Shown here piece by piece: positions 1 to 39,724 of a stretch of DNA of 64,000 nt. Below the pieces are notes generated by a model that saw nothing but the letters and a program-made list of their open reading frames with translations, searched no databases and was not told the DNA's origin. How positions within the stretch are numbered: position 1 is the first letter of the stretch; each line of letters opens with the position of its first letter. Both the position numbers and the translations under genes were made by a program. This stretch comes from Escherichia coli (GTDB lineage: Bacteria; Pseudomonadota; Gammaproteobacteria; Enterobacterales; Enterobacteriaceae), in assembly GCF_003790525.1 (NCBI RefSeq), contig NZ_CP033633.1. One strand, 5' to 3'.

Positions 1-333
1 TCCGGGACCAAAATTTGGCTGGTTGCCGGTATCACCGATATGAGAAATGGCTTCAACGGCCTGGCTGCGAAAGTACAGACGGCGCTGAAAGACGATCCCA
101 TGTCCGGCCATGTTTTCATTTTCCGGGGCCGCAGCGGCAGTCAGGTTAAACTGCTGTGGTCCACCGGTGACGGACTGTGCCTCCTGACCAAACGGCTGGA
201 GCGTGGGCGCTTCGCCTGGCCGTCAGCCCGTGATGGCAAAGTGTTCCTTACACAGGCGCAGCTGGCGATGCTGCTGGAAGGTATCGACTGGCGACAGCCT
301 AAGCGGCTGCTGACCTCCCTGACCATGCTGTAA
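1..333 (+). CDS. tnpB: IS66-family accessory protein TnpB (orfB), 5' end beyond window
   Basis: Frame open from base 1; translation about 70 percent identical to the TnpB ORF at 58381-58728. Confidence 0.85.
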   Translation, partial: SGTKIWLVAGITDMRNGFNGLAAKVQTALKDDPMSGHVFIFRGRSGSQVKLLWSTGDGLCLLTKRLERGRFAWPSARDGKVFLTQAQLAMLLEGIDWRQPKRLLTSLTML

Positions 334-382
334 ATCTCTTTATCCTGGTTGTCACAGAATAAGCCCGGTAAAATACGGGCTT

Positions 383-1920
383 ATGAACGACATCTCTTCT
401 GACGACATCTTCCTGCTGAAACAGCGCCTGGCCGAACAGGAAGCGCTGATCCACGCCCTGCAGGAAAAGCTGAGCAACCGTGAGCGCGAAATAGACCATC
501 TGCAGGCGCAGCTGGATAAACTCCGCCGGATGAACTTCGGCAGTCGTTCCGAAAAAGTCTCCCGCCGTATCGCACAAATGGAAGCCGATCTGAACCGGCT
601 TCAGAAAGAGAGCGATACGCTGACTGGTAGGGTGTATGACCCGCAGTACAGCGTCCGTTGCGTCAGACCCGCATCCGTAAGCCGTTCCCTGAATCACTAC
701 CCCGTGACGAAAAGCGACTGTTGCCTGCGGCGCCGTGCTGCCCGAACTGCGGCGGTTCACTGAGCTATCTGGGCGAGGATACCGCCGAACAGCTGGAGTT
801 GATGCGTAGCGCCTTCCGGGTTATCCGGACGGTACGGGAAAAACATGCCTGTACTCAGTGCGATGCCATCGTGCAGGCACCTGCACCTTCGCGGCCCATC
901 GAGCGGGGTATCGCCGGACCGGGGCTGCTGGCCCGCGTGCTGACCTCGAAGTATGCAGAGCACACCCCGCTGTATCGCCAGTCAGAAATATACGGCCGGC
1001 AAGGTGTGGAGCTGAGCCGTTCACTGCTGTCGGGCTGGGTGGATGCATGCTGCCGGCTGCTGTCTCCGCTGGAAGAGGCGCTTCATGGCTATGTCATGAC
1101 TGACGGCAAACTCCATGCCGATGATACCCCGGTCCAGGTACTGATGCCGGGTAATAAGAAGACGAAGACCGGGCGGTTGTGGGCGTATGTTCGTGATGAC
1201 CGCAATGCCGGGTCAGCGTTGGCACCTGCAGTGTGGTTCGCTTACAGCCCGGACAGAAAAGGCATCCATCCGCAGACTCATCTTGCTTGCTTCAGCGGTG
1301 TGCTGCAAGCGGATGCGTACGCCGGGTTCAACGAGCTGTATCGCAATGGTGGGATAACGGAAGCTGCCTGCTGGGCTCATGCCCGCCGAAAGATCCACGA
1401 TGTGCACGTCCGCATCCCGTCAGCACTGACGGAAGAAGCCCTGGAGCAGATCGGTCAGTTGTACGCCATAGAGGCGGATATAAGGGGAATGCCGGCAGAG
1501 CAGCGGCTTGCTGAACGTCAGCGAAAAACGAAACCGCTGTTGAAATCCCTGGAAAGCTGGTTGCGTGAAAAGATGAAGACCCTGTCGCGACACTCAGAGT
1601 TGGCGAAGGCGTTCGCGTACGCACTTAACCAGTGGCCGGCACTGACGTACTATGCGAACGATGGCTGGGTGGAAATCGACAACAACATCGCTGAAAATGC
1701 CCTGCGGGCGGTAAGTCTGGGTCGTAAAAACTTCCTGTTCTTCGGCTCTGGCCATGGTGGTGAGCGGGGAGCGCTACTGTACAGCCTGATAGGGACGTGC
1801 AAACTGAATGACGTGGATCCAGAAAGCTACCTTCGCCATGTGCTTGGCGTCATAGCAGACTGGCCGGTCAACCGGGTCAGCGAACTGCTTCCGTGGCGCA
1901 TAGCACTGCCAGCTGAATAA
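383..1920 (+). pseudogene. tnpC: IS66-family transposase TnpC, split by a frameshift near 640-660
   Basis: ORFs 383-763 and 658-1920 together align to the intact 523-aa TnpC at 56790-58361; frame changes after YDPQY. Confidence 0.8.
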
Positions 1921-2058
1921 CACATCCCCGTCAATACGGCCCTCGCTGTACGCTTACTCTCCTACAAGATTATTTAATGGAATGAAAAATATCTGGCCTG
2001 ATAATAATGTTCCAGAATTAATATCTGCAGGCTATGTTAAGTTGTCCCCACACACAAT

Positions 2059-2334
2059 CTACCTGTTTTCTCGTGTGTGCCACAGGCGCAATACATAAAT
2101 AGTCTGGCCATTAAGTTCGTAACGGATTTCGTACTCGCCAGCAAAAATCCGTCTGACCTCCCTGGGTTCAAACTGAAACAACTGTTCTCCCATACGTGGA
2201 TGAGTTAACAGAATGACCGGTGCCTGTGTCAGGGACTGCACCGTTCTGGCGGCCGCAGGTTTACTGGCCAGCACCAGAAAATCATATAACCGCGCCAAAT
2301 CAGAAAGCGCCTTACTGGTCCACTTCAGTTCCAT
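2059..2334 (-). CDS. RelE/ParE-family toxin
   Basis: 91-aa protein with RelE/ParE-like C-terminus (YVLRLWHTRE); start overlaps the stop of the upstream antitoxin ORF. Confidence 0.7.
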   Translation of the reverse strand: MELKWTSKALSDLARLYDFLVLASKPAAARTVQSLTQAPVILLTHPRMGEQLFQFEPREVRRIFAGEYEIRYELNGQTIYVLRLWHTRENR

Positions 2335-2618
2335 CAGCGTGGCACCGGTAACGGATTGTCAGTACTGAGGCTGTCCGCCCAGGCCTGTACAGCCTGATGG
2401 TCGATAACCTGTCCGGATTTCACATCGTCCAGGGCTTCCAGCGTCAGGCGATTACGCTCCTCCTCCTGGGCAAGCCATGCAGAAAGCGCCTGTTTGATAA
2501 CCCAGCCCCGGGAGCGTTCCAGTCTGGCGGCCATCTGGTCGACTTTATCAGCCATTGGTAATGGCACATGCGCGGTAATGACTTTTGTTGCCTGTGCGGT
2601 ATTGTTTTTCATTTGCAT
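2334..2618 (-). CDS. Ribbon-helix-helix (CopG/ParD-like) antitoxin
   Basis: Small ORF immediately upstream of and overlapping the toxin; RHH-like segment. Confidence 0.6.
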   Translation of the reverse strand: MQMKNNTAQATKVITAHVPLPMADKVDQMAARLERSRGWVIKQALSAWLAQEEERNRLTLEALDDVKSGQVIDHQAVQAWADSLSTDNPLPVPR

Positions 2619-3002
2619 ACCCGATTAGTTGTTAATCATATTTAATCATAGTGATTACTTTCAGACGGAACAAGGCAAATAATGCGCGTCAGCGCATGTA
2701 AGGCGGCACTCCGTTGTTGCATATGGCACAGGAGTAAAACCGCCGAAGCCCGGCGTAAGCCGGTACTGATTGATAGATTTCACCTTACCCATCCCCAGCC
2801 CTGCTAAGCCATACCCGCTTTCAGCCATGAGAGAGCTTCTGTGCGCGGTCGGAGTGGTCCCGACGAGGGTTTACCCGAAGTCGGGACGTATCTCCGCGTT
2901 AGCGGGGTCAGTTTGGAATTCGGAAAATAAACCATGTTAAGACTATTTTTTAGCCAAAGGGCTTTCAGGAATCGCCAGAATGGCGGGGCAACAGTGGTTT
3001 TG

Positions 3003-3100
3003 GTGTCCGAAATCGACCTGTTTCGGACATTGTTAAACAGATATATCCGAAAGTCAGCAAAATTACTTTCGGACATGCATTATAATATGTACACCCATTT
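3003..3100. promoter_or_regulatory. Putative res site (resolvase binding subsites)
   Basis: Imperfect palindromes TGTCCGAAA...TTTCGGACA and TCCGAAAGT...ACTTTCGGA directly upstream of the serine recombinase gene. Confidence 0.4.
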
Positions 3101-3118
3101 CGTACAGAAGATCTCACT

Positions 3119-3709
3119 ATGTCTCGAATTTTTGCCTATTGTCGGGTTTCCACTCTGGAACAGACGACCGAAAATCAACGTCGGGAAATCGAAAGCGCGG
3201 GTTTTAACGTCAGACCCCAACGAATAATAGAAGAACAAATTAGTGGATCAGTAGCAGCCAGTGAACGTCCAGGTTTTAACCGGTTGCTTGATCGTCTGGA
3301 AAGTGGCGATGTATTGATAGTCACAAAACTGGATCGCCTCGGTCGTAATGCAATGGATATCAGGAAAACAGTGGAGCAACTGACCGAATCTGGCATCAGG
3401 GTGCATTGCCTGGCATTAGGTGGTGTTGATCTGACCAGTCCGGCAGGAAAAATGACAATGCAAGTGATTTCAGCGGTCGCTGAATTTGAACGAGATCTTT
3501 TACTTGAACGAACTTATTCAGGGATAGCAAGAGCACGGGATGCAGGAAAACGTTTTGGTCGCCCACCGGTATTAAATGAAGAACAAAAACAGAAGGTACT
3601 CGAACGCATTAAGTCTGGGGCAAGTATAAGTGCTATTGCCAGGGAATTCCGAACCACACGGCAAACAATTCTGAGAGTTAGAGCGAAACAGCAAACTGTT
3701 ACTGTATAG
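3119..3709 (+). CDS. Serine recombinase (resolvase/invertase family)
   Basis: 196 aa; N-terminal catalytic motif YCRVST and C-terminal HTH; typical resolvase length. Confidence 0.85.
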
Positions 3710-3722
3710 AAAATAGTCTTAG

Positions 3723-3951
3723 CGTGGGATATTTTCCGTTTTCCAAGCGGACCCCAAGGAAGACTACATCGCGTTCATGCCGAAACCGAATGTAAGAACG
3801 GCATTGCATAATCTTGCAGTGGCGATCGAACATTACAATGAAAACCATCCGCACAGTGCGTTGGGTTATCGCTCTCCGCGAGAATATCGACGTCAGCGGG
3901 TAACATTAACTTAAGATACAACCCCTGTCTGGAAATAAGGGGGCAAGAACA
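3723..3951 (+). pseudogene. IS2-like (IS3 family) transposase C-terminal remnant with right inverted repeat
   Basis: Translation [11 protein letters not shown]...[14 protein letters not shown] matches the C-terminus of IS2 OrfB at 53952-54857; TGTCTGGAAATAAGGGGGCAAGAACA resembles the IS2 right end. Confidence 0.6.
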
Positions 3952-4063
3952 CATTGACACTGTAAATATGGCATTGTATAAAATCCCGCGACGATAATGA
4001 GTTTCATTTGCATTACTCCCATTTGCTGGTCATCCACTCGCCTGTTTACAAGGATAGCGTTTA

Positions 4064-5062
4064 ATGAAGAAGGTCCTTTGCGCGTTAGGCTTGATGTTCA
4101 CCGCCGTCAGTTCCGCGCTGGCAACAACCTACCCCCTGACGATTGAAAACTGCGGCTATCAGGAGACCTTCACCCGGCCGCCGGAGCGCGTGGTCGCGCT
4201 GGGGCAAAATACGGTCGAAATTCTGCTGCTGCTCGGGCTGCAAAAGCAGGTGGTCGCCAGCGCCTTCTGGCCGACCAACGTTTTACCGCAGCTGGCTGAG
4301 CAAAACGCGAAGATTAAAACCTTGACGGTGGAAATTCCGAGCCTGGAATCGGTGCTGGCGCAAAATCCTGATTTCGTTCCCGCCCAGTTGCCGCTGCTGC
4401 TGGGGCCGGAAAGCAAAGTCGCCAGGCGTGAAGATCTCGCCACCGTCGGCGTGAACAGCTACGTCTCACCGGGGGTGTGCGCCACCAAAAAGGCCACCGG
4501 CGATATGTACGGCAGCCGGCAAAAGCTGTGGGATATGACCTGGCTGTATCAGGAAATTAGCGATTTTTCCCGCATTTTCAACGTCGAAGATCGTGGTCAG
4601 GCGCTGATTGCCGATTTCAAAAAACGTGAAGCCGACCTGCGCCAGGAGTTTGGTAAAAGCAAAAAGGATCTCTCCTTCGTCTTCTGGTTCTCCAGCGCCT
4701 CACCTTCGGCCGATGCCTATGTCGGCGGCAAAAACAGCGCCTCCGGATTTATCGCCAGCGTGCTGGGCGGACATAATGCGATTACCTCCGAAACCGAGTG
4801 GCCCACGGTGAGCTGGGAGAGCATTATTGCCGCCAACCCGGATGTGATCGTGGTCGCCAGCCTGGATCGTAACCGCTGGGCGCTGGATAAAGCCGAGGAG
4901 AAGATCAAATTCCTCAAAAGCGATCCCGCCGTCAGCCAGCTGGAGGCGGTGAAAAAAGGCCATATCGTGGTCATGGACGGTCAGGCGATGAATCCGACCA
5001 TTCGCACGCTTTACGGCGCGGAGCAGGTGGGCGAGCAGCTGAGAAAAATGGGGCTGAACTGA
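4064..5062 (+). CDS. ABC transporter periplasmic substrate-binding protein (FecB/FhuD-like, iron-siderophore type)
   Basis: 332 aa with N-terminal signal peptide; first gene of an SBP-permease-ATPase cluster. Confidence 0.7.
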   Translation: MKKVLCALGLMFTAVSSALATTYPLTIENCGYQETFTRPPERVVALGQNTVEILLLLGLQKQVVASAFWPTNVLPQLAEQNAKIKTLTVEIPSLESVLAQNPDFVPAQLPLLLGPESKVARREDLATVGVNSYVSPGVCATKKATGDMYGSRQKLWDMTWLYQEISDFSRIFNVEDRGQALIADFKKREADLRQEFGKSKKDLSFVFWFSSASPSADAYVGGKNSASGFIASVLGGHNAITSETEWPTVSWESIIAANPDVIVVASLDRNRWALDKAEEKIKFLKSDPAVSQLEAVKKGHIVVMDGQAMNPTIRTLYGAEQVGEQLRKMGLN

Positions 5063-6099
5063 TGAGCGTCGGCGCGATTGAGACGTGCCGCAGCATACTG
5101 CTCACCGGCTGGTGTGTACTGGCAGCGATCGTGCTGGCGCTGGTGATCGCTGTGGGCGTCAGCGTTGGCGAGCTGGCCATCCCGCTGCAGAATGTCTTTT
5201 ATGCTATCAGCAACAGAACCGGCTTAACCGCTGAGCCGCTCAACCATATCTATGAGAGCGTTATCTGGGATTTCCGCCTCAGCCGCGCGCTGGTCGCCGC
5301 CTGCTGCGGCGCCGGCCTCGCTATCTGCGGTGTCGTGCTGCAAAGCTTGCTGAAGAATGCCCTCGCCGAACCCTACGTCCTCGGCGTCTCCGCCGGGGCC
5401 TCCACCGGCGCGGTGTCGATCGTGGTGCTGGGCCTTGGCTCTGGCGCAATTTCCCTCTCGGCAGGCGCCTTTGCCGGGGCCTTCGCCGCCTTCGCCTTTG
5501 TCGCCTTGCTGACTAACGGCGCGCGCGGCGGCAATGAGCGTACGATTCTTGCGGGCGTCGCCGCCTCGCAGTTATTTAACGCCATCACGGCCTATACCAT
5601 CAGCACCACCGCCAGCGCGCAGCAGGCGCGCGATGTGATGTTCTGGCTGCTGGGCAGCTTCAGCGGCGTCCGCTGGCCCGAATTCCAGTTGGTCATCGTG
5701 GTGGTGCTCGCGGGTCTGGCGGTCTGCCTGTGGTATGCCCGGGCGCTGGACGCGTTCACCTTCGGCGACGATGCCGCCGCCTCGCTGGGGATTGCTGTGC
5801 CGCGCGTGCGCCTGATCCTCTTCACCACTGCGGCGCTGATCACCGCCACCATCGTCAGCATGGCCGGCTCAATCGGCTTTGTTGGCCTGGTGGTGCCGCA
5901 CGTGATGCGTTTCTTCTTTGGCCCGCTGCACCGAACGTTGCTGATCGCCAGCGCGCTGGCAGGGGCGATATTGATGGTACTGGCGGACATTGCGTCGCGC
6001 CTGCTGATTGCCCCGCAAAGTCTGCCCGTTGGGGTAGTAACCGCCCTGGTTGGGGTGCCTTTCTTTGCCGTGATTATCTACCGCTCAAGGAATAAGTGA
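5062..6099 (+). CDS. ABC transporter permease (FecCD family)
   Basis: 345 aa, hydrophobic multi-helix protein; start overlaps the SBP stop. Confidence 0.8.
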   Translation: MSVGAIETCRSILLTGWCVLAAIVLALVIAVGVSVGELAIPLQNVFYAISNRTGLTAEPLNHIYESVIWDFRLSRALVAACCGAGLAICGVVLQSLLKNALAEPYVLGVSAGASTGAVSIVVLGLGSGAISLSAGAFAGAFAAFAFVALLTNGARGGNERTILAGVAASQLFNAITAYTISTTASAQQARDVMFWLLGSFSGVRWPEFQLVIVVVLAGLAVCLWYARALDAFTFGDDAAASLGIAVPRVRLILFTTAALITATIVSMAGSIGFVGLVVPHVMRFFFGPLHRTLLIASALAGAILMVLADIASRLLIAPQSLPVGVVTALVGVPFFAVIIYRSRNK

Positions 6100-6860
6100 T
6101 GAGTATTTGCGCTGAAAATATCACCTGGAAGGCAGGCAAAAAGGTCATCGTCAATAATGTCTCGCTGCGGGTGCCGCGCGGAGAAACGGTCGGACTGCTG
6201 GGGCCCAACGGCTGCGGCAAATCCTCGCTGCTGCGCGTTCTGGCGGGCCTGCGCCGCCCGGATGCAGGTCGCGTCACCCTCGACGGCCAGGATATCGCCC
6301 GGATGGCGAAAAAGCAGCTCGCCCGCCGCGTGGCTTGCGTCGAGCAACACGGCATGACCGAGGCCAATATGCGGGTGCGCGACGTCGTGCGCCTGGGACG
6401 CATTCCCCACCACTCTCCGTTCTCAAACTGGAGCGCTCAGGATGACGAAGCGATTGCCGCCGCGCTGCAGCGGGTAGCGATGCTGGAGAAAAGCGAACAG
6501 GGATGGTTAAGCCTCTCCGGCGGCGAGCGGCAGCGGGTGCATATCGCCCGCGCGCTGGCGCAGAGCCCGAGCGAAATCCTGCTGGATGAGCCGACCAACC
6601 ATCTGGATATACACCATCAGATGCAGTTAATGCAGTTGATCAGCGAGCTGCCGGTAACCAGCATTGTGGCCATTCACGATCTTAACCATGCCGCGATGTT
6701 CTGCGATTCGCTGATCGTGATGCAGCAGGGGCAGATCCTCGCCAGCGGGACGCCGGAGGAGATTTTGTCCGAAGCGCTGCTGTGGGACGTTTTCCGGGTG
6801 AAAACCAAAATCGAGATCTCCCCTTACCACGGCAAAAAGCACATTCATTTCATCGTTTAG
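6096..6860 (+). CDS. ABC transporter ATP-binding protein
   Basis: Walker A GPNGCGKSS, signature LSGGERQR, Walker B ILLLDEP. Confidence 0.85.
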   Translation: MMSICAENITWKAGKKVIVNNVSLRVPRGETVGLLGPNGCGKSSLLRVLAGLRRPDAGRVTLDGQDIARMAKKQLARRVACVEQHGMTEANMRVRDVVRLGRIPHHSPFSNWSAQDDEAIAAALQRVAMLEKSEQGWLSLSGGERQRVHIARALAQSPSEILLDEPTNHLDIHHQMQLMQLISELPVTSIVAIHDLNHAAMFCDSLIVMQQGQILASGTPEEILSEALLWDVFRVKTKIEISPYHGKKHIHFIV

Positions 6861-6871
6861 GTTGGGCGGAT

Positions 6872-8104
6872 ATGCCTCTTTTCTCCCTGCGCCCTGCGGC
6901 AACCCTCTGGCCTCCGGTGTTACTGGGAAGCCAGTTCGTTTTTAATATTGGCTTTTACGCGGTCGTACCTTTCCTCGCCCTCTTCCTGCGCGACGACATG
7001 CTGCTCTCAGGCGGACTTATCGGCCTGATCCTCGGGCTGCGTACCTTCTCCCAACAGGGGATGTTTATCCTCGGCGGGACGCTGGCCGACCGCTATGGCG
7101 CTAAGGCGATCATTCTCGCCGGCTGCGTCGTTCGCGTCGCCGGTTTTCTCCTGCTGGCGTGCGGGGCGTCGCTGTGGCCCATTATCCTTGGCGCCTGCCT
7201 GACCGGCGTCGGCGGCGCCCTGTTCTCCCCGTCGATAGAGGCCCTGCTGGCGCGGGCCGGTACCCACAGCCAGGCCAACGGGAAACGCAGCCGCGCCGAG
7301 TGGTTTGCGCTGTTTGCGGTATGCGGTGAACTGGGAGCGGTGATCGGCCCGGTGGCCGGAGGCGTGCTGAGCGGGATCGGCTTTCGACATATCGCCCTCG
7401 CCGGCGCGGGAATATTTCTTCTGGCGCTGGCGGTGCTCTTTTTCGGTCTGCCCGCCGACGGGCACACGACAACAACGCGCAGACGAGTCCCATGGTGGAC
7501 GCCTTTGCGCCAGCCGCGCTTTGTCGCGTTTATTCTCGCCTACAGCTCATGGCTGTTGAGCTACAACCAACTCTACCTCGCTCTGCCGGTGGAGATCCAA
7601 CGTTCCGGCGGCCGCGAGCAGGATCTGGCGCCGCTCTTTATGCTGGCCTCGCTGTTGATTATCACCCTCCAGCTCCCTCTCGCCCGCTTCGCCCGGCGAA
7701 TGGGCGCCGTGCGCATCCTGCCGGTGGGCTTTCTGCTGCTGTCGGCTTCCTTTGCCAGCGTGGCGTTATTCGCCGCCGCCCCACCCGCCGAAAGTTGGCT
7801 GCGGTTAATGCCGGCGGCTAGTTTTGTCACGCTGCTCACCCTCGGCCAGATGCTGTTAGTGCCCGCAGCCAAGGATCTGATCCCGCTGTTCGCCGAGGAG
7901 TCGACGCTGGGCGCCCACTACGGAGCGCTCGCCACCGCAGGAGGGTGCGCGGTGTTAGCCGGGAATTTACTGCTCGGTCATTTACTTGACCAGGCGCTCA
8001 TTCCGTCGCCGCAGGCGGTTTATCCCTGGCTTCTGCTGGCGCTGTTTCCGCTGTGCAGCGCCGTCGCCCTGCGGGCGATCTGTCGCCCGCTGGCGGCAAC
8101 ATGA
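6872..8104 (+). CDS. MFS-family transporter
   Basis: About 410 aa, highly hydrophobic; start chosen at the internal ATG 6872 rather than the ORF-track start 6782, which overlaps the ATPase gene. Confidence 0.65.
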   Translation: MPLFSLRPAATLWPPVLLGSQFVFNIGFYAVVPFLALFLRDDMLLSGGLIGLILGLRTFSQQGMFILGGTLADRYGAKAIILAGCVVRVAGFLLLACGASLWPIILGACLTGVGGALFSPSIEALLARAGTHSQANGKRSRAEWFALFAVCGELGAVIGPVAGGVLSGIGFRHIALAGAGIFLLALAVLFFGLPADGHTTTTRRRVPWWTPLRQPRFVAFILAYSSWLLSYNQLYLALPVEIQRSGGREQDLAPLFMLASLLIITLQLPLARFARRMGAVRILPVGFLLLSASFASVALFAAAPPAESWLRLMPAASFVTLLTLGQMLLVPAAKDLIPLFAEESTLGAHYGALATAGGCAVLAGNLLLGHLLDQALIPSPQAVYPWLLLALFPLCSAVALRAICRPLAAT

Positions 8105-8106
8105 CG

Positions 8107-8130
8107 CAGAGCGGGTAACAGCCCGCTCTG
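8107..8130. terminator. Hairpin downstream of the MFS gene
   Basis: CAGAGCGGG-TAACAG-CCCGCTCTG perfect 9-bp stem; no clear T-run. Confidence 0.35.
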
Positions 8131-8181
8131 GAAGTGAACAGCTGGTATCCATATTTTCAGCTAATCCTTTAACAAAGATCC

Positions 8182-8357
8182 TCAGCCCTGTTTAAACCCC
8201 GGCTTGCCGTTTTTGGCTCGCCATTCCTTCACTTCTTTTACGATACCTTCAGGACTGTCCTCACGGTCATCCCTTGGATAATAAATAAGATCAGAACCAT
8301 CAGGGTGTTCAGCTAATCGACGAAATTCATCCACTAATTTATCGTCATCAGCCTCAG
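8182..8357 (-). pseudogene. Colicin DNase-type immunity protein (Im-family) C-terminal fragment, truncated by IS1
   Basis: Minus-strand translation [57 protein letters not shown] matches the conserved C-terminus of E-group colicin immunity proteins; reading frame runs into the IS1 left end. Confidence 0.6.
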
Positions 8358-8412
8358 GGTGATGCTGCCAACTTACTGATTTAGTATATGATGGTGTTTT
8401 TGAGGTGCTCCA

Positions 8413-8688
8413 GTGGCTTCTGTTTCTATCAGCTGTCCCTCCTGTTCAGCTACTGACGGGGTGGTGCGTAACGGCAAAAGCACCGCCGGACATCAGCGCT
8501 ATCTCTGCTCTCACTGCCGTAAAACATGGCAACTGCAGTTCACTTACACCGCTTCTCAACCCGGTACGCACCAGAAAATCATTGATATGGCCATGAATGG
8601 CGTTGGATGCCGGGCAACAGCCCGCATTATGGGCGTTGGCCTCAACACGATTTTACGTCACTTAAAAAACTCAGGCCGCAGTCGGTAA
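8413..8688 (+). CDS. insA: IS1 InsA
   Basis: 91-aa zinc-finger/HTH protein, canonical IS1 InsA sequence. Confidence 0.9.
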
Positions 8689-9110
8689 CCTCGCGCATAC
8701 AGCCGGGCAGTGACGTCATCGTCTGTGCGGAAATGGACGAACAGTGGGGCTATGTCGGGGCTAAATCGCGCCAGCGCTGGCTGTTTTACGCGTATGACAG
8801 GCTCCGGAAGACGGTTGTTGCGCACGTATTCGGTGAACGCACGATGGCGACGCTGGGGCGTCTTATGAGCCTGCTGTCACCCTTTGACGTGGTGATATGG
8901 ATGACGGATGGCTGGCCGCTGTATGAATCCCGCCTGAAGGGAAAGCTGCACGTAATCAGCAAGCGATATACGCAGCGAATTGAGCGGCATAACCTGAATC
9001 TGAGGCAGCACCTGGCACGGCTGGGACGGAAGTCGCTGTCGTTCTCAAAATCGGTGGAGCTGCATGACAAAGTCATCGGGCATTATCTGAACATAAAACA
9101 CTATCAATAA
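8607..9110 (+). CDS. insB: IS1 InsB reading frame (InsAB' by frameshift)
   Basis: 167-aa canonical IS1 InsB. Confidence 0.9.
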
Positions 9111-9125
9111 GTTGGAGTCATTACC

Positions 9126-9320
9126 CGAACTAAAGAGGGGATGGCTGTTGCCCGTTCAAAGGGAAAATTGAAAGGAAAACAGCCTAAATTATCTGAAAAA
9201 CAACAAAAAGAACTATGCCGTATGCGTGATACTGGCCAGTACTCTATCAGCGATCTAGCGGAACTATTTACCGTCTCGCGTGCAACGGTTTATCGAACAC
9301 TTTCACGAGGACAAAAATGA
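9126..9320 (+). pseudogene. Serine recombinase C-terminal (HTH) fragment, truncated by IS1
   Basis: Frame open from the IS1 boundary; ...KEGMAVARSKGKLKGKQPKLSEKQQKEL...VSRATVYRTL resembles a resolvase C-terminus. Confidence 0.6.
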
Positions 9321-9579
9321 CCGATTTAACTACACAGCAACATCTAGTAAAAATTGTCCATGATTATGCCTGCCCTCAAAAGGGTCATGGACAGTCCATC
9401 AAAGGTTCAAATGGATTACATCTGCATTCAATACCCAGATTACTTCCGCTTTGCTAAATGGATAGAACGGTTGGCGTAGGGTATTGTTGATGGTGTAATT
9501 AAAGTTCCTAAAGATCATTAAAATATCAGATCGGAAATTTAGGCGGTTCCGGCGTAGAACCCAGAACCCCTTATCCGAA

Positions 9580-10443
9580 TTATTGTTCAGTTAACTTCAT
9601 TTCGACAAGTAAAGGTAAATGATCTGAGACAGATGCATATGGCTTACTTTCAGGGGTCGCTCTATCTGACGGTTTAGGAATATATACATCTTTAATGTCC
9701 CATTTTTGAGCATTTGATGTAAGTATATAATCAATTTTCCTGTCTGGATTCCATGATGGTGCCGTGTACTTCAATTCCTTATCAGTGTCATTGAACCATG
9801 CTGTTAAATCCAAGTACTCTGTTGATTGAGGTGGTAAATTAAGATCACCCACTATAATTGGAAGTGCATTTTTAAACTGCCAAGAAGAGAATTCTGTTTG
9901 AAGAGTTCTTACTTGCTCTGCTCGTAATGGCTGCGTAGTGAAGTCCAAATGAGTAGTTACTAACATAACAGGCGCAGGATAATTAGGGACATCAACTTCT
10001 ACAGCACAGGCCGCTCTTTGCTCCGCACCTTTGATGTTAGGTAGTTCCATCCTTTTACTCAATTTCAAATCATACTTAGACAGTACTGCTGTACCATATT
10101 CCCCACCATCATGATCTATAGCCTTGCAGAAGTAATAATTCATTCCCAACTTATTAGCTATATACTCTGCTTGATTGACTGGGTTAGAACCCTCTTTACT
10201 AAAGTTCTTACCAGAACGCCCAGTCATGTTATCAACTTCTTGCAGTCCAATAATATCAACATTCATTTTACGAATTGCTTCTACAATGGCATCAGTACTC
10301 CCCATTCTAGAGGCCATTATGTTATATGACCCAACACGAATACTATCGGTATCTGCTGGACCATCCATGAGGCGATCAGAAGCTAAAGTTGAAGAGGAAA
10401 GAACTATAAACCCTATAACCGCAGCAATGCTTGTTAATTTCAT
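9580..10443 (-). CDS. Secreted endonuclease/exonuclease/phosphatase (EEP, DNase I-like) family protein
   Basis: 287 aa, N-terminal signal peptide, EEP-like motifs (GLQEV near N-terminus, SDHLPL near C-terminus); low-GC gene between inverted IS1 copies. Confidence 0.6.
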   Translation of the reverse strand: MKLTSIAAVIGFIVLSSSTLASDRLMDGPADTDSIRVGSYNIMASRMGSTDAIVEAIRKMNVDIIGLQEVDNMTGRSGKNFSKEGSNPVNQAEYIANKLGMNYYFCKAIDHDGGEYGTAVLSKYDLKLSKRMELPNIKGAEQRAACAVEVDVPNYPAPVMLVTTHLDFTTQPLRAEQVRTLQTEFSSWQFKNALPIIVGDLNLPPQSTEYLDLTAWFNDTDKELKYTAPSWNPDRKIDYILTSNAQKWDIKDVYIPKPSDRATPESKPYASVSDHLPLLVEMKLTEQ

Positions 10444-28349: not shown

Positions 28350-28690
28350 GGATGTCGCCGGCGGCTCCGCTTTACCCGGCCATGCGGGGCATGGCCTTGT
28401 GGGTTTTCAACTCTGTAGCCTCAGCGTCGTGTGCGGGCTGTGCCGTGCCTCCATCGTAGCCGGGCTTCTGCGGGCGGGTTGCAAGGTAAGGTGAACCGCT
28501 GCGGTCACCCGGTCCCTCCTTCCCGTCTGCCGTGATTTTCCGGTCGTTCACCCGCTCAGATTTCGCGGTCTCACCCTCCAACTCCCGTCAGCCGTGTGCG
28601 TCAGGCTGCGGCTTCCCTTGCGCCCTTGCAACCCTGCAGGCCCGGCAAAGATGGAGGCACGGCACCGCCCGGTGTCGCGGAATATGTGAA
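28350..28690. promoter_or_regulatory. Structured GC-rich repeat, family B copy 1 (candidate ssi/Frpo-like single-strand promoter)
   Basis: About 340 bp near-identical to 35303-35647; immediately upstream of klcA. Confidence 0.5.
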
Positions 28691-29790: not shown

Positions 29791-29989
29791 TACAGGGCAG
29801 GCGGTGGAGGCCGCCTGTCAGCCCGCGCGAAAACCCCTGGCAGGCTGACGCCTGCCGGAAACGCGGGGTGCAGCGCCTGCGGCGCTGCCGGCCCGGCTTT
29901 CCGGTCAGAAGGTAGTGTATGGCTGTATGCCAGGAACAGGTGTGATATTCCGTGACGCTGTCACCGTTTCTGGCTGTTTTTTGTTGCGC

Positions 29990-30500
29990 CCACTTCGGCT
30001 CCCGGCTGCCTGGCGGCATCCGGTCGTCAGGCCCGACTCCGACAGGCAGCTGCTGGCGCACCCGCCAGTCTCCGCCGAACCCGCTGGCGCGGTTTCGGGC
30101 TGTCGCTACGGTCCGATGCGTGAAAACCCGGGCTTGCAGCGACCGTTCCGGTCGCGCCGCCTCTGTCGCGCCGTGACCTGCGCTCCCTGCACACCTGACG
30201 GTGTGTGAGGAAACTGCGCCTGATGGCGCAGCAGTCTTCCCTCCTGCCGCCACCTCTGCGGCCTGTTTCCCGCTGTGGACTTTCCGGGGGGCAGACGTAA
30301 CCCCCTCCCGTTCCATCTGTCCAGGGTGAGATGCACCGGCCACAAAATTTTTAGCCATGAACCCGGCTAAAAATTTTGCGTCCGCCCCCGGACAGCTGTC
30401 CCGTGAGGCGGTAAACGGGCCCCCATCGGAAAGGTCCACTGCGGGGAGAAACCCCTGTGAAGTGGACGGCAGGAGGAGCTTTCGCTCCTCTGAAGGGGCA
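29990..30500. promoter_or_regulatory. Structured GC-rich repeat, family A copy 1 (candidate ssi/Frpo-like single-strand promoter)
   Basis: About 500 bp repeated at 36343-36848 and partly at 39725-40055; upstream of ssb. Confidence 0.5.
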
Positions 30501-30559: not shown

Positions 30560-31087
30560 ATGAGTGCACGTGGTATCAACAAGGTCATCCTCGTCGGGCG
30601 TCTGGGCAATGATCCGGAAGTCCGTTACATCCCCAACGGGGGCGCAGTGGCAAACCTGCAGGTGGCCACGTCAGAAAGCTGGCGCGACAAACAGACGGGG
30701 GAGATGCGGGAGCAGACGGAATGGCACCGCGTGGTGCTGTTCGGCAAGCTCGCGGAAGTGGCAGGTGAATATCTGCGCAAGGGCGCGCAGGTCTACATCG
30801 AGGGGCAACTCCGTACCCGTAGCTGGGAAGATAACGGTATCACCCGTTACGTCACTGAAATTCTTGTTAAGACCACGGGCACCATGCAGATGCTGGGGAG
30901 TGCACCACAGCAGAACGCTCAGGCGCAACCGAAGCCTCAGCAGAATGGGCAGCCACAGAGTGCTGACGCGACGAAAAAAGGTGGCGCGAAAACGAAAGGC
31001 CGTGGACGTAAGGCCGCGCAGCCCGAGTCTCAGCCGCAACCGCCGGAGGGGGAGGATTACGGGTTTTCAGACGATATCCCGTTCTGA
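30560..31087 (+). CDS. ssb: Plasmid single-stranded DNA-binding protein
   Basis: OB-fold N-terminus [18 protein letters not shown], Gln/Pro-rich linker, acidic C-terminal DDIPF tail. Confidence 0.95.
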
Positions 31088-31105: not shown

Positions 31106-31378
<273 letters not shown>

Positions 31379-31441: not shown

Positions 31442-33001
31442 ATGTCAGTTACAGAGTCTAAGACAAAAACGGAGCGTAAATCCAGCCGTAAACCTGCAAA
31501 AACGCAGGAAACTGCACTGTCTGCCCTGCTGGCGCAGACGGAGGAAGTGAGCGTGCCGCTGGATTCACTGATTAAATCACCGCTGAATGTGCGCACGGTG
31601 CCGTATTCTGCGGAGTCCGTCAGTGAACTGGCTGATTCCATTAAGGGAGTCGGCCTGCTGCAGAATCTGGTTGTTCATGCCCTGCCAGGTGACCGTTACG
31701 GTGTCGCCGCAGGTGGTCGCCGACTGGCAGCACTCAACATGCTGGCAGAGCGTGACATCATTCAGGCTGACTGGCCTGTCCGCGTGAAAATTATTCCGCA
31801 GGAGCTGGCGACGGCTGCATCGATGACCGAGAACGGTCATCGTCGGGATATGCACCCTGCCGAACAGATTGCCGGATTCCGCGCAATGGCGCAGGAAGGC
31901 AAAACACCTGCGCAAATCGGTGATTTGCTGGGCTATTCACCCCGCCATGTCCAGCGAATGCTGAAACTGGCTGACCTTGCGCCTGTCATCCTCGATGCGC
32001 TGGCAGAAGACCGCATCACCACCGAACACTGTCAGGCGCTGGCGCTGGAGAACGACACCGCGCGTCAGGTGCAGGTGTTTGAAGCCGCCTGCCAGTCAGG
32101 ATGGGGTGGAAAACCGGATGTGCGGGTTATCCGCAACCTGATTACGGAAAGTGAAGTGGCGGTGAAGGACAACACTAAATTTCGCTTTGTGGGGGCTGAT
32201 GCTTTCTCGCCTGACGAACTGCGCACCGATTTGTTCAGCGATGACGGGGACGGTTATGTCGACCGCGTGGCGCTCGATGCCGCCCTGCTGGAAAAACTCC
32301 AGGTTGTTGCAGAGTCCCTTCGGGAAGCAGAAGGCTGGGAATGGTGCGCCGGGCGCATGGAGCCAGTCGGTGAGTGCCGTGAGGATGCCGGAACATACCG
32401 CTGTCTGCCGGAGCCGGAAGCGGTGCTGACGGAGGCGGAAGAAGAACGCCTGAACGAACTGATGACGCGTTACGACGCGCTGGAAAACCAGTGTGAGGAA
32501 TCCGACCTGCTGGAAGCAGAAATGAAGCTGATGCGCTGCATGGCGAAGGTCAGAGCGTGGACGCCGGAGATACGTGCCGGAAGCGGTGTGGTGGTGTCCT
32601 GGCGTTATGGCAACGTATGTGTCCAGCGTGGTGTGCAGTTGCGCAGTGAAGATGACGCGACTGACGACGCTGACCGCACGGAACAGGTGCAGGAGAAAGC
32701 GTCAGTGGAGGAAATCAGTCTGCCACTGCTGACGAAAATGTCTTCCGAACGCACGCTGGCAGTCCAGGCGGCACTGATGCAGCAACCGGACAAATCCCTG
32801 ACACTGCTGGCATGGACGCTCTGCCTGAATGTGTTTGGCAGCGGAGCGTACAGTAAACCAGCACAAATCAGCCTGGAATGTAAACATTATTCGCTGACCA
32901 GCGATGCGCCGTCAGGGAAGGAAGGTGCCGCATTCATGGCGCTGATGGCAGAAAAAGCCCGTCTTGCGGCCCTGTACCGGAGGGATGGTCACGGGACATG
33001 A
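31442..33001 (+). CDS. ParB-like nuclease-domain protein of the leading region
   Basis: 519 aa; N-terminal ParB/Srx-like region (GLLQNLVV...GGRRLAAL). Confidence 0.65.
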   Translation: MSVTESKTKTERKSSRKPAKTQETALSALLAQTEEVSVPLDSLIKSPLNVRTVPYSAESVSELADSIKGVGLLQNLVVHALPGDRYGVAAGGRRLAALNMLAERDIIQADWPVRVKIIPQELATAASMTENGHRRDMHPAEQIAGFRAMAQEGKTPAQIGDLLGYSPRHVQRMLKLADLAPVILDALAEDRITTEHCQALALENDTARQVQVFEAACQSGWGGKPDVRVIRNLITESEVAVKDNTKFRFVGADAFSPDELRTDLFSDDGDGYVDRVALDAALLEKLQVVAESLREAEGWEWCAGRMEPVGECREDAGTYRCLPEPEAVLTEAEEERLNELMTRYDALENQCEESDLLEAEMKLMRCMAKVRAWTPEIRAGSGVVVSWRYGNVCVQRGVQLRSEDDATDDADRTEQVQEKASVEEISLPLLTKMSSERTLAVQAALMQQPDKSLTLLAWTLCLNVFGSGAYSKPAQISLECKHYSLTSDAPSGKEGAAFMALMAEKARLAALYRRDGHGT

Positions 33002-33399
33002 CGACATTCCTTTCACTCAGTCAGGAGGTGCTGTTATCCCTGCTCAGTTTCTGCACCGCGTGCAGCATCCACGGCGTTCAGACCCGCGAGTGTGGTCACA
33101 CGTCACGCAGCCCGCTGGACACGCTGGAGAGCGCCATCGGTTTTCACATGCGCGACTGGTGGCAGCCGACAAAAGCAAACTTCTTCGGACACCTGAAAAA
33201 GCCGCAGATTATCGCAGCCCTGAATGAGGCAGGACTGTCCGGTGCCGCACGGGACGCGGAGAAGATGAAGAAAGGCGATGCGGCTGAACATGCAGAGTTC
33301 CATATGAAAGACAACCGCTGGGTGCCTGGCTGGATGTGTGCACCACGTCCACAGACGGATACCACTGAACGCACTGATAACCTGGCTGATGCCGCCTGA
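32998..33399 (+). CDS. Hypothetical protein, ATGA-coupled to the ParB-like gene (possibly its detached C-terminal part)
   Basis: 133-aa ORF starting at the ATGA overlap with the preceding stop. Confidence 0.35.
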   Translation: MTTFLSLSQEVLLSLLSFCTACSIHGVQTRECGHTSRSPLDTLESAIGFHMRDWWQPTKANFFGHLKKPQIIAALNEAGLSGAARDAEKMKKGDAAEHAEFHMKDNRWVPGWMCAPRPQTDTTERTDNLADAA

Positions 33400-33453: not shown

Positions 33454-33888
33454 ATGAAAACTGAACTGACCCTGAATGTCCTGCAGACCATGAACGCACA
33501 GGAATATGAAGATATCCGTGCTGCGGGAAGCGATATGCGCCGTAATCTCACTCACGAGGTGATGCGTAAAGTGGACGCACCGGCTAACTGGATGATGAAT
33601 GGCGAGTATGGCAGTGAGTTCGGGGGCTTTTTCCCCGTCCAGGTTCGTTTCACGCCAGCCCACGAACGTTTCCACCTGGCATTATGTTCGCCGGGAGACG
33701 TCTCTCAACTCTGGATGCTGGTTCTGGTGAATGGTGGTGGACAGCCTTTCGCCGTCGTTCAGGTGCAACATATCTTCACGCCTGTCGCGATCAGTCACAC
33801 GCTGGCGCTCGCCGCGACACTTGATGCGCAGGGATACAGTGTTAACGACATCATTCATATTTTGATGGCAGAAGGAGGTCAGGCATGA
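33454..33888 (+). CDS. psiB: PsiB, plasmid SOS-inhibition protein
   Basis: [27 protein letters not shown]... near-identical to F PsiB. Confidence 0.9.
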
Positions 33889-34604
33889 GCGCACGTTCAC
33901 GGGCACTGATCCCCCTCAGCGCAGAACAACAGGCCGCCATGCAGGCTGTGGCTGTCACCGAACAACGTCGTCGTCAGGGACGCACACTTTCAGCATGGCC
34001 TTATGCCAGCGCTTTCTTTCGCTGCCTGAATGGCAGTCGCCGGATTTCGCTGACCGATCTCCGCTTTTTTGCCCCTGCGCTGACGAAGGAGGAATTTCAT
34101 GGCAACCGTCTCCTGTGGCTGGCTGCCGTGGATAAACTGATTGAAAGTTTTGGTGAAGTCTGTGTTCTTCCCCTGCCATCCGATGCGGGGCATCGTCTGT
34201 TCCCGTCTGTTCCTTTTCGTGAAGGTGAGCGTCGTCGTCAGAAAACCACGCTGACAGAGCAGAAATACAGCCGCCAGCGGGAACGTGAGGCAGAACGACG
34301 GGAACTGGAATACCAGACATGTTTTGCTCAGGCGCAGATTGACCTTGCGTTTCATACTCCCGCCACGGTCGGAAGCTGGTTGTCCCGCTGGTCTGGTGCT
34401 GTTGAGGAGCATGATCTGGAAACGATTTTCTGGGGGTGGTGCGGGCGTTTTCCGTCACTGTCATCATTTGACCGGTTTTTCTGGCAGGAGGGACCACTCT
34501 GGCGGCTGATTTTTGAAGCCGGTGAGGCCGGTCGTGGTGCACCGGTACAGGTACGTGCACTTGAGCAGTGGATGATCCCGAACAAGCTGGAGAACGTAAT
34601 ATGA
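33885..34604 (+). CDS. psiA: PsiA
   Basis: 239 aa directly after psiB with overlapping stop/start, as in F and ColIb-P9 leading regions. Confidence 0.8.
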
Positions 34605-35302: not shown

Positions 35303-35647
35303 AGGACGTCGCCGGCGGCTCCGCTTTTACCCGGCCATGCGGGGCATGGCCTTGTGGGTTTTCAGGTATGAAGCCATCGTGTCGTGTGCGGGCTGTGCCG
35401 TGCCTCCATCGTAGCCGGGCTTCTGCGGGCGGGATGCAAAGGTACGCTTCGCCGCTGCGGTCACCCGGTCCCTCCTTCCCGTCTGCCGTGATTTTCCGGT
35501 CGTTCACCCGCTCAGATTTCGCGGTCTCACCCTCCAACTCCCGTCAGCCGTGCGCGTCGGGCTGCGGCTTTCCTTGCGCCCTTGCATCCCTGCAGGCCCG
35601 GCAAGGATGGAGGCACGGCACCGCCCGGTGCCGCAGAACATGTGACT
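35303..35647. promoter_or_regulatory. Structured GC-rich repeat, family B copy 2
   Basis: Near-identical to 28350-28690; immediately upstream of ardA. Confidence 0.5.
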
Positions 35648-36163: not shown

Positions 36164-36342
36164 TTTACTCCCCCGCTCCGGCGGGGGTATGGCCTGCCGG
36201 GCCGCCGGAAAACCCTGGCAGGCTTACGCCTGCCTGAAATGCAGGAGGGCCGCGCCTGCGGCGCTGCCCTTCCTGCCCGTCATGGTGTGAGGCATTTTTC
36301 TGTTATGTCGTTTCTGTTGTTCTGATTTCCGGAGGCGGGGAC

Positions 36343-36848
36343 ACCCTTCGGCTCCCGGCTGCCTGGCGGCATCCGGTCGTCAGGCCCGACTCCGACAGGC
36401 AGCTGCTGGCGCACCCGCCAGTCTCCGCCGAACCCGCTGGCGCGGTTTCGGGCTGCCGCTACGGTCCGATGTCTGAAAAACCAGGCCTGCAGCGACCGTT
36501 CCGGTCGCGCCGCCCCTGTCGCGCCGGAAACGGCGCTCCCTGCACACCTGACGGTGTGTAAGGCCACTGCGCCTGATGGCGCAGTTGTCTGCCCTTCCGC
36601 CGCCACCCCTGCGGCCTGTTTCCCGCTGTGGACTTTCCGGGGGCTGAAGCGGCCACAACACGTTTCAGCCGTCCAGGGGAGAGATGTACCAGCCACAAAA
36701 CTTTTTGCCGCAGGCGTCAAAAACTTTTGCGTCTGCCCCCGGACAACTGCCCCGTGCCGTGGCAGTCGCTGCCCCATCGGAAAGGTCCACTGCGGGGAGA
36801 AACCCCGAAGAAGTGGACGGCAGAAGGGGCTTTCGCCCCTCCGGGGAA
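36343..36848. promoter_or_regulatory. Structured GC-rich repeat, family A copy 2
   Basis: Near-identical to 29990-30500; upstream of ORF 36895. Confidence 0.5.
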
Positions 36849-38777: not shown

Positions 38778-38951
38778 ATGACGATTGCAGAACGTCTTGA
38801 GCAAAAAGGTCGCCAGGAGGGCAGGATGGAAGGTGCGCTTGAAAAAGCCCTGGCTATTGCGTGCCAGCTTCAGAAAATGGGGATGACGCCGGAGCAGATT
38901 AAGCAGGCTACCGGACTGTCCGAAGCTGAACTGAAAAAAATCATTCACTGA
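38778..38951 (+). CDS. Stand-alone Rpn C-terminal-domain small protein (RpnS-like), copy 1
   Basis: 57 aa MTIAERLEQKGRQEGRMEG...TGLSEAELKKIIH; paralogous to the C-terminus of the Rpn gene. Confidence 0.5.
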   Translation: MTIAERLEQKGRQEGRMEGALEKALAIACQLQKMGMTPEQIKQATGLSEAELKKIIH

Positions 38952-39009: not shown

Positions 39010-39240
39010 ATGACTATTGCAGAACGTCTTATACAGAAAGGTTTCGACGAAGGTTTTAAAGAAAGTTTTAAAGAAAGTTTTAAAGAAGGCTTTAAAGAAG
39101 GCTTTAAAGAAGGGGCGCTTGAAGTGGCGCGGGAAATAGCCTGCCGGCTGCGGGATATAGGCTGGCCGCCGGAACGGATTCAGGAGGTCACGGGACTTTC
39201 CGGTGAAGAACTGAAAAAGCTGTTTCCTGATGAGCAGTAG
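39010..39240 (+). CDS. Stand-alone Rpn C-terminal-domain small protein (RpnS-like), copy 2
   Basis: 76 aa MTIAERLIQKG...(FKES/FKEG x5)...TGLSGEELKKLF; contains its own 12-bp tandem array at about 39050-39112. Confidence 0.5.
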   Translation: MTIAERLIQKGFDEGFKESFKESFKEGFKEGFKEGALEVAREIACRLRDIGWPPERIQEVTGLSGEELKKLFPDEQ

Positions 39241-39270
39241 CCTGGCATTCAGCCAGGCTGTGAATCATGC

Positions 39271-39522
39271 TCACACATCCTCTGCCGTTTCCCCCAGTTC
39301 ATTTTCCAGACGCCTGATGATATCTGCCTTACGCATCCCCTGCATGTGAGGCAGCAGGTCACGGACTGAAAGAGCCTGGGTGGTCCTCCAGACGGTGACG
39401 TCCACCTGTTCCGCATTTTCCCAGGCGTGCCATGTTCTCTGCGTCACGCCAAATTCTCTGGCCGCTTTTTCGCGTGACCAGAGCATGCTTTTTCGCCAGA
39501 TTCGCAGTTCCCAGCCGGTCAT
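39271..39522 (-). CDS. Small helix-turn-helix regulator (hypothetical)
   Basis: 83 aa; HTH-like segment AAREFGVTQRTWHAWEN. Confidence 0.45.
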   Translation of the reverse strand: MTGWELRIWRKSMLWSREKAAREFGVTQRTWHAWENAEQVDVTVWRTTQALSVRDLLPHMQGMRKADIIRRLENELGETAEDV

Positions 39523-39536
39523 AAAACACCTTTGAA

Positions 39537-39625
39537 AAAGTGAAAAAACTTCACTTTATTTTATCACCATAATTGCCAAATCAGCGCGATAAATAAGTGT
39601 GAAAAAAGTGAAGAAATTTCACTTT
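39537..39625. promoter_or_regulatory. Two 21-bp palindromic operator-like sites flanking a promoter
   Basis: AAAGTGAA-N5-TTCACTTT at 39537-39557 and 39605-39625, about 68 bp apart, upstream of the HTH gene. Confidence 0.45.
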
Positions 39626-39724
39626 TTTTGGTTGCAGATGTCGTGCGGTTTTCTCTGTTTTCACCTGTGCGGGAGTGGTGCGCCAGTGACCACAGCATGC
39701 CGTTGTTGTGCCGTCGGTTTTCTC

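Follow-up and report, generated by a model that had tools for sequence, protein, structure and literature searches.

The ParB-like leading-region gene of an IncK2/Z plasmid record is in all likelihood a herB gene split by a single missing base

The closest described relative of the gene analysed here belongs to the F plasmid. Its product, YfjB, was renamed HerB ('host expression reprogrammer') in a July 2026 preprint (Virolle et al., bioRxiv 2026, PMC13370423); in annotations it also appears as ParB2, YubM or YfhA/YcjA. F HerB is zygotically induced from single-strand promoters; in new transconjugants it appears as foci associated with the nucleoid, and it binds the chromosome at multiple sites and reprograms transcription in the host (PMC13370423). 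Deletion of herB from F leaves the transfer frequency the same, raises the acquisition cost by about 10% and makes the mutant lose in repeated conjugation-competition. The protein comprises four domains: D1 (residues 1–136), which binds CTP, D2 (137–235), an HTH domain, D3 (238–417) and D4 (418–652), a new helical dimerisation core of which cryo-EM covers residues 421–636. D4 includes an inter-subunit β-strand (475–479), a protruding loop (545–558) and a four-helix module (577–625), and it dimerises via a domain-swapped helix, with about 4,500 Å2 buried. HerB constructs without D4 are diffuse in the cell, whereas those with D4 are nucleoid-associated, and coverage of at least 80% of each domain is the published criterion for the family (PMC13370423). 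The ssb–herB–psiB–psiA cluster is itself conserved (PMC8406263). A second point of comparison is the parB-like gene of IncI1 plasmids: in the experimental evolution of two IncI1 ESBL plasmids, parallel frameshifts, premature stops and deletions arose in this gene in one host strain, and its knock-out raised the transfer rate in that host only (Benz & Hall).

The window analysed here is a stretch of 64,000 nucleotides from Escherichia coli (RefSeq assembly GCF_003790525.1, contig NZ_CP033633.1). The plasmid is of the IncK2/Z, IncI-complex type. Positions 1–10900 are 100.0% identical, without gaps, to plasmids of the chicken E. coli strains E15, E16 and E32 (NZ_CP119749, NZ_CP119729 and NZ_CP119733), and the window therefore belongs to a poultry-associated IncK2/Z lineage. 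The cargo in this part consists of an MFS transporter, an iron ABC transporter and an endonuclease/exonuclease/phosphatase family protein. The leading region reads, in order, an ardB-like antirestriction gene, DUF1380, ssb, DUF905, the ParB-like gene, psiB, psiA, a hypothetical gene and ardA, in agreement with F, p135-2, pE15-3 and others; the ParB-like gene thus occupies the position of herB, between ssb (and DUF905) and psiB–psiA. The features are collected in Table 1.

Table 1. Features of the disrupted herB locus and its neighbours; positions are those of the window.
Feature	Position	Strand	Remarks
ssb	30560..31087	+	Upstream gene of the ssb–herB–psiB–psiA cluster; context
DUF905 gene	31139..31378		Between ssb and the ParB-like gene
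Disrupted herB (yfjB / parB2 / yubM) locus, whole	31442..33399	+	1958 nt; 1959 nt in relatives (652 codons + stop)
herB codons 1–511, original frame	31442..32974	+	D1 (CTP-binding ParB N-domain), D2 (HTH), D3 and first ~40% of D4
Lesion site	32975	+	Single T where relatives have TT; codon 512 TTA (Leu) becomes T-A
Eight out-of-frame codons (YRRDGHGT), then TGA	32975..33001	+	In place of the conserved LPEGWSRD, residues 512–519
133-aa ORF (herB codons 520–652)	32998..33399	+	Rest of D4 and C-terminal tail; opened by internal Met520
psiB	33451/33454..33888	+	Downstream gene, same operon as herB
psiA	33885..34604	+	Downstream gene, same operon as herB

The first-pass annotation had described a 519-aa ParB-like ORF whose end overlaps a 133-aa ORF by ATGA, and had left open whether these are two translationally coupled genes or one gene whose C-terminus has been detached by a frameshift. 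The ORF list and the raw sequence contain both ORFs and their junction: the longer one (31442..33001, + strand) runs from an ATG to a TGA, the shorter one also starts with ATG, in a different frame, and the four bases ATGA at 32998..33001 are common to the two. Pfam recognises ParB_N (32.0 bits, cut-off 26.3) and HTH_ParB (35.1 bits, cut-off 22.6; residues 136–222) in the 519-aa ORF, while the 133-aa ORF matched no Pfam family. The label of a ParB-like leading-region gene was apt, and the gene is herB/yfjB: with the missing base restored, the encoded protein has the 652 residues of F HerB (WP_000117173.1, encoded between DUF905 and psiB) and is identical to it at 625 of them (95.9%), with no gaps.

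The 519-aa ORF retains the N-terminal hallmarks of the family. Tested for the signature of the ParB/Srx CTP-binding clamps, it shows an N-domain with both GxxRxxA (Box II, GGRRLAA at 91–97, including R94) and ENxxR (Box III, MTENG at 128–132, including E130), followed by the HTH with R168, R172 and K175; the two boxes and these three HTH residues are shared with F HerB, and all of the 71 aligned homologues have G91, R94, E130 and N131. What sets the window gene apart from F HerB is that it is broken at codon 512, inside D4, so that full-length HerB is not encoded, and that its backbone is IncK2/Z (MOBP, MPF_I) as opposed to IncF (MOBF, MPF_F). A HerB family member is a single polypeptide of about 600–770 residues with D1–D4; the record as written does not encode one, and does so once the T is restored. 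The locus is thus a disrupted member of the HerB family (a pseudogene or a sequencing error) and not a non-member.

Kinship with the CTP-dependent DNA clamps ParB, Spo0J, Noc and KorB is confined to the homologous N-terminal 235 residues, where the two Pfam domains lie. Homologues of solved structure cover only the first 220–235 residues or so (Spo0J, PDB entry 1vz0, E = 1e-17; ParB, 4umk; Noc, 7nfu; and KorB); a sequence search of the PDB returned no solved structure of HerB D3/D4, and residues 236–652 match no ParB C-terminal domain of solved structure. Unlike canonical ParB, the window gene has no adjacent ParA, and the C-terminal 415 residues (D3–D4) are unrelated to the ParB C-terminal domain. 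Nor is its setting that of a ParABS system, the neighbours being ssb, DUF905 and psiB, with the partition genes of the plasmid, parM and an AAA ATPase, located elsewhere. The roles differ as well: partition for canonical ParB, host transcriptional reprogramming for HerB (PMC13370423).

The origin of the two ORFs becomes apparent from near-identical plasmids. A base-by-base comparison with p135-2 (NZ_CP080262.1) reveals a sole difference, the window having GCCCTGTACCGG where p135-2 has GCCCTGTTACCGG: at 32975, a TT pair has been reduced to a single T. The TT form GCCCTGTTACCGG is also found in pE15-3, pF1022-2, pEF5-18-41_2 and pCREC-591_1. At least nine IncK2/Z and IncI-complex plasmids, among them p135-2, pE15-3, pF1022-2 and pEF5-18-41_2, match all 1958 nt exactly bar one extra T, each with one 1959-nt CDS for 652 aa; these intact relatives are typed as IncK2/Z or IncI-gamma/K1, MOBP and MPF_I. 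More broadly, at least 5000 PLSDB plasmids matched the 1958 nt by megablast, and among the matches listed the interval is always 1959 nt long and annotated as one 'ParB/RepB/Spo0J family partition protein'. Compared with the intact protein, the 519-aa ORF corresponds to residues 1–511 followed by eight out-of-frame residues, and the 133-aa ORF to residues 520–652, while LPEGWSRD (residues 512–519) is encoded by neither. The TGA that closes the first ORF takes its TG from the end of the internal Met520 codon and its A from the codon that follows. The ATGA overlap is therefore seen because a one-base deletion makes eight shifted codons run into a stop built on the Met520 codon. We put the probability that the two ORFs are pieces of one herB gene, which has lost one T in codon 512, at about 96%; no observation speaks against the single-gene reading. 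This is not a new gene pair, but a known gene with a frameshift that is private to this record. Of the two alternatives offered by the first-pass annotation, the detached C-terminus has stood and the coupling of two genes has not, since near-identical relatives carry one 1959-nt CDS.

Translational coupling in bacterial operons commonly takes the form of a four-base ATGA overlap. Such an overlap, with an ATG opening each ORF, is what speaks for two genuine genes, one for a ParB-like protein of 519 aa and one for a distinct partner of 133 aa; we nevertheless consider this arrangement exceedingly unlikely. A single protein of 652 aa is encoded by relatives that are 100% identical at all other positions, no homologue shows the split, and the last eight residues of the 519-aa ORF are out-of-frame junk in place of a conserved LP motif. 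The first-pass annotation had named homologues made up of two separate genes that meet at the same ATGA as the observation that would speak against a frameshift; PLSDB, 5,426 complete E. coli genomes, about 15 billion collected proteins, 100,044 species-representative genomes and metagenome contigs revealed no such case. The alignment with full-length homologues that it had recommended also supports the frameshift, in showing the 652-aa single-protein form. A phmmer search with the intact protein against 1.84 billion cluster representatives (clusters at 50% identity) gave 1213 matches below 1e-30, of which the best 150 were examined: 101 of these are single full-length proteins (597–769 aa) that align in one stretch from residue 60 or earlier to residue 620 or later, at 29–57% identity, and only three begin after residue 490, all of them fragments with 91% identity or more to the query. 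Around the break, 71 aligned full-length homologues show at most one insertion column; L512 is conserved in 53 and P513 in 68 of the 71, and Met is found at position 520 in only three, the others having F, W or L. Neither the downstream start codon nor the separate frames of a coupled pair are thus conserved. With the fused form maintained down to about 29% identity and Met520 so rare, the ATGA junction is best regarded as accidental. In metagenomes, where the intact allele is present on at least 120 contigs, an open frame of 649–686 aa spans the site in 94 of the 103 loci with a complete gene, and in the other nine the open frame ends early, upstream of the site and at differing positions.

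The 133-aa piece was also considered as a stand-alone family, and this was rejected: the fragments in the databases are contig-edge calls or come from broken loci, and their lengths vary, which again argues against a coupled partner. Against 5.8 billion proteins, the 133-aa query retrieved fragments only, of scattered lengths (74–233 aa) and mostly labelled partial. The exact 133-aa product occurs once (OJL26155.1), on a 1101-nt contig that begins 26 nt 5′ of its ATG; these 26 nt begin tgTTaccgg, i.e. with the intact allele, so that this entry is a gene call at a contig edge. Three C-terminal fragments on long contigs were inspected, and psiB and other genes are broken there too. In GCA_046507365.1 (two loci) and GCA_008711395.1, ssb, herB, psiB and psiA are all broken up into numerous short ORFs; these loci have the look of indel-ridden or decayed sequence, and spurious database entries for 'stand-alone' C-terminal pieces of HerB come from them. 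None of the approximately 15 billion proteins is the exact 519-aa product; in that collection the exact intact 652-aa product is found on 650 contigs, YubM being one of its names there. The deletion allele itself was not found elsewhere in PLSDB, in the 5,426 complete E. coli genomes or, by an exact-pattern scan for which the intact metagenome copies served as positive control, in the species-representative genomes and metagenome contigs. Neither PLSDB nor the complete E. coli RefSeq set includes the present record. Among the 103 complete metagenome copies, 34 are 682 aa long from the first in-frame ATG, compared with 652 or 654 aa; this length fits the 2049 bp given for the IncI1 parB-like gene by Benz & Hall, and the true start codon of the herB family may be annotated inconsistently.

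If the T is indeed absent from codon 512, the ribosome would read eight wrong codons and then stop at the TGA formed from the Met520 codon and the next base. The product would consist of HerB residues 1–511, namely D1, D2, D3 and the first 40% or so of D4, with the remainder of D4 gone. AlphaFold, given the alignment of 71 sequences, yields a model (mean pLDDT 88.9) with a helix at 496–511, a loop at 512–519 and a helix at 520–525, with pLDDT values of 90–97 there; this confident fold places the cut inside the folded D4 domain. The frameshift splits D4 and removes its best-conserved local motif. By analogy with the truncations of F HerB, the shortened protein should fail at nucleoid association and focus formation, and should be null or strongly hypomorphic. 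We infer that the 519-aa product has no functional dimerisation and nucleoid-association core, an argument that is not airtight in that the published truncations took out the whole of D4, whereas the 519-aa ORF retains residues 418–511. Plasmid transfer should persist; at most, establishment should become modestly costlier or the transfer rate should change in a way that depends on the host.

The split could conceivably be real and function kept, either through a +1 ribosomal frameshift that restores full-length HerB or through re-initiation at Met520 that yields a complementing D4 fragment. Hungry AGG codons provoke low-frequency +1 shifts, and termination–reinitiation occurs at ATGA overlaps. 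The shifted frame (TAC CGG AGG GAT) does contain the rare Arg codons CGG–AGG, the junction is of the kind that can support reinitiation, and in the model the cut lies in a loop that separates two helices, which favours fragment complementation. We regard maintained function as very unlikely all the same. The shifted arrangement is conserved in no sequence searched, and the relatives are all single-frame, which is not the pattern of a programmed ribosomal frameshift; inspection of 32972–33001 by eye recognised no known slippery motif, and no recoding motif was recognised either. The GGAGG closest to the ATG of the 133-aa ORF, at 32979–32983, is 14 nt away, a poor spacing for a Shine–Dalgarno sequence. 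A two-piece protein would moreover be devoid of the conserved L512–P513 segment, and the domain-swapped D4, with its large buried interface, is unlikely to bear a nick together with an eight-residue deletion.

A single herB gene interrupted by the loss of one T being the preferred reading, we may wonder whether the base is missing from the plasmid or from its record. We lean slightly towards a real mutation of the plasmid, and grant a consensus error in the record a little less than an even chance. The allele is unique to this record, in a gene otherwise unchanged with respect to at least nine plasmids; this is compatible with an error and also with a very recent mutation. A second private one-nucleotide indel is present at 45482, where an extra C gives GTCCGTC instead of the GTCGTC of pE15-3, pF1022-2 and pEF5-18-41_2; this indel falls within a minus-strand remnant of the C-terminus of an IS256-like transposase and converts an 81-aa open frame into frames of 74 and 58 aa. 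Over 34.4 kb, the private differences from the three relatives amount to 24 SNPs and these 2 indels. Taken with the perfect match of positions 1–10900 to three plasmids, this tally indicates that the assembly is not rich in indel errors. An error-ridden assembly was examined as an explanation and found to be unsupported, a result that holds for the assembly in general and not for any one site. The lesion sequence, TT, is no long homopolymer, and this also counts against an error-prone assembly.

A real disruption of herB is plausible in view of other broken copies. In a spread sample of 60 records from the complete E. coli genomes, another herB copy, that of NZ_CP062820.1, is one base too long and is called a 'frameshifted' pseudogene by PGAP; about 9% of the metagenome copies have an open frame shortened upstream of the site; and the IncI1 evolution mutants were affected in the same gene. 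With these evolved IncI1 alleles the window allele shares the gene family, the plasmid complex and the kinds of lesion (frameshifts and premature stops). They differ in that the IncI1 alleles were experimentally verified and their effect on transfer was shown, whereas the window allele is known from one sequence alone.

For annotation, the consequence is that the interval should be described as one frameshifted herB/yfjB pseudogene, or as a single 652-aa CDS if reads show TT; a ParB-like gene followed by a hypothetical protein is wrong. The significance beyond annotation is small: either an already known gene is broken in an unremarkable way, or its sequence contains an error. Should the mutation be real, the record would represent a natural herB-defective IncK2/Z plasmid, comparable with near-identical herB-intact relatives from poultry E. 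coli, and the comparison could test the roles reported for HerB in acquisition cost and host-specific transfer rate. It is improbable that the missing T is a natural loss-of-function allele selected in the host of the plasmid; if it were, it would be a field counterpart of the host-specific parB-like knock-outs of IncI1 experimental evolution, and would imply that wild plasmids shed the host-reprogramming factor when it is unprofitable.

Two sets of long direct repeats flank this part of the leading region: 29828–30490 (upstream of ssb) is repeated at 36206–36841 (downstream of ardA), and 28371–28689 (upstream of the ardB-like gene) at 35326–35645 (upstream of ardA). Both sets consist of blocks of 40–298 nt that are 83–94% identical. 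Their positions fit those of the ssi/Frpo single-strand promoter repeats of leading regions, and also those of the repeats reported to mediate deletion of the ssb–parB-like–psiBA operon (Benz & Hall). Further downstream, the window and pE15-3 differ by 12 nt in length at 38819–38834, and SNPs are denser at 39060–39700 (99.2% identity, compared with about 99.8% elsewhere); this variable stretch between an Rpn-family gene and a DUF4942 gene is probably a recombination patch.
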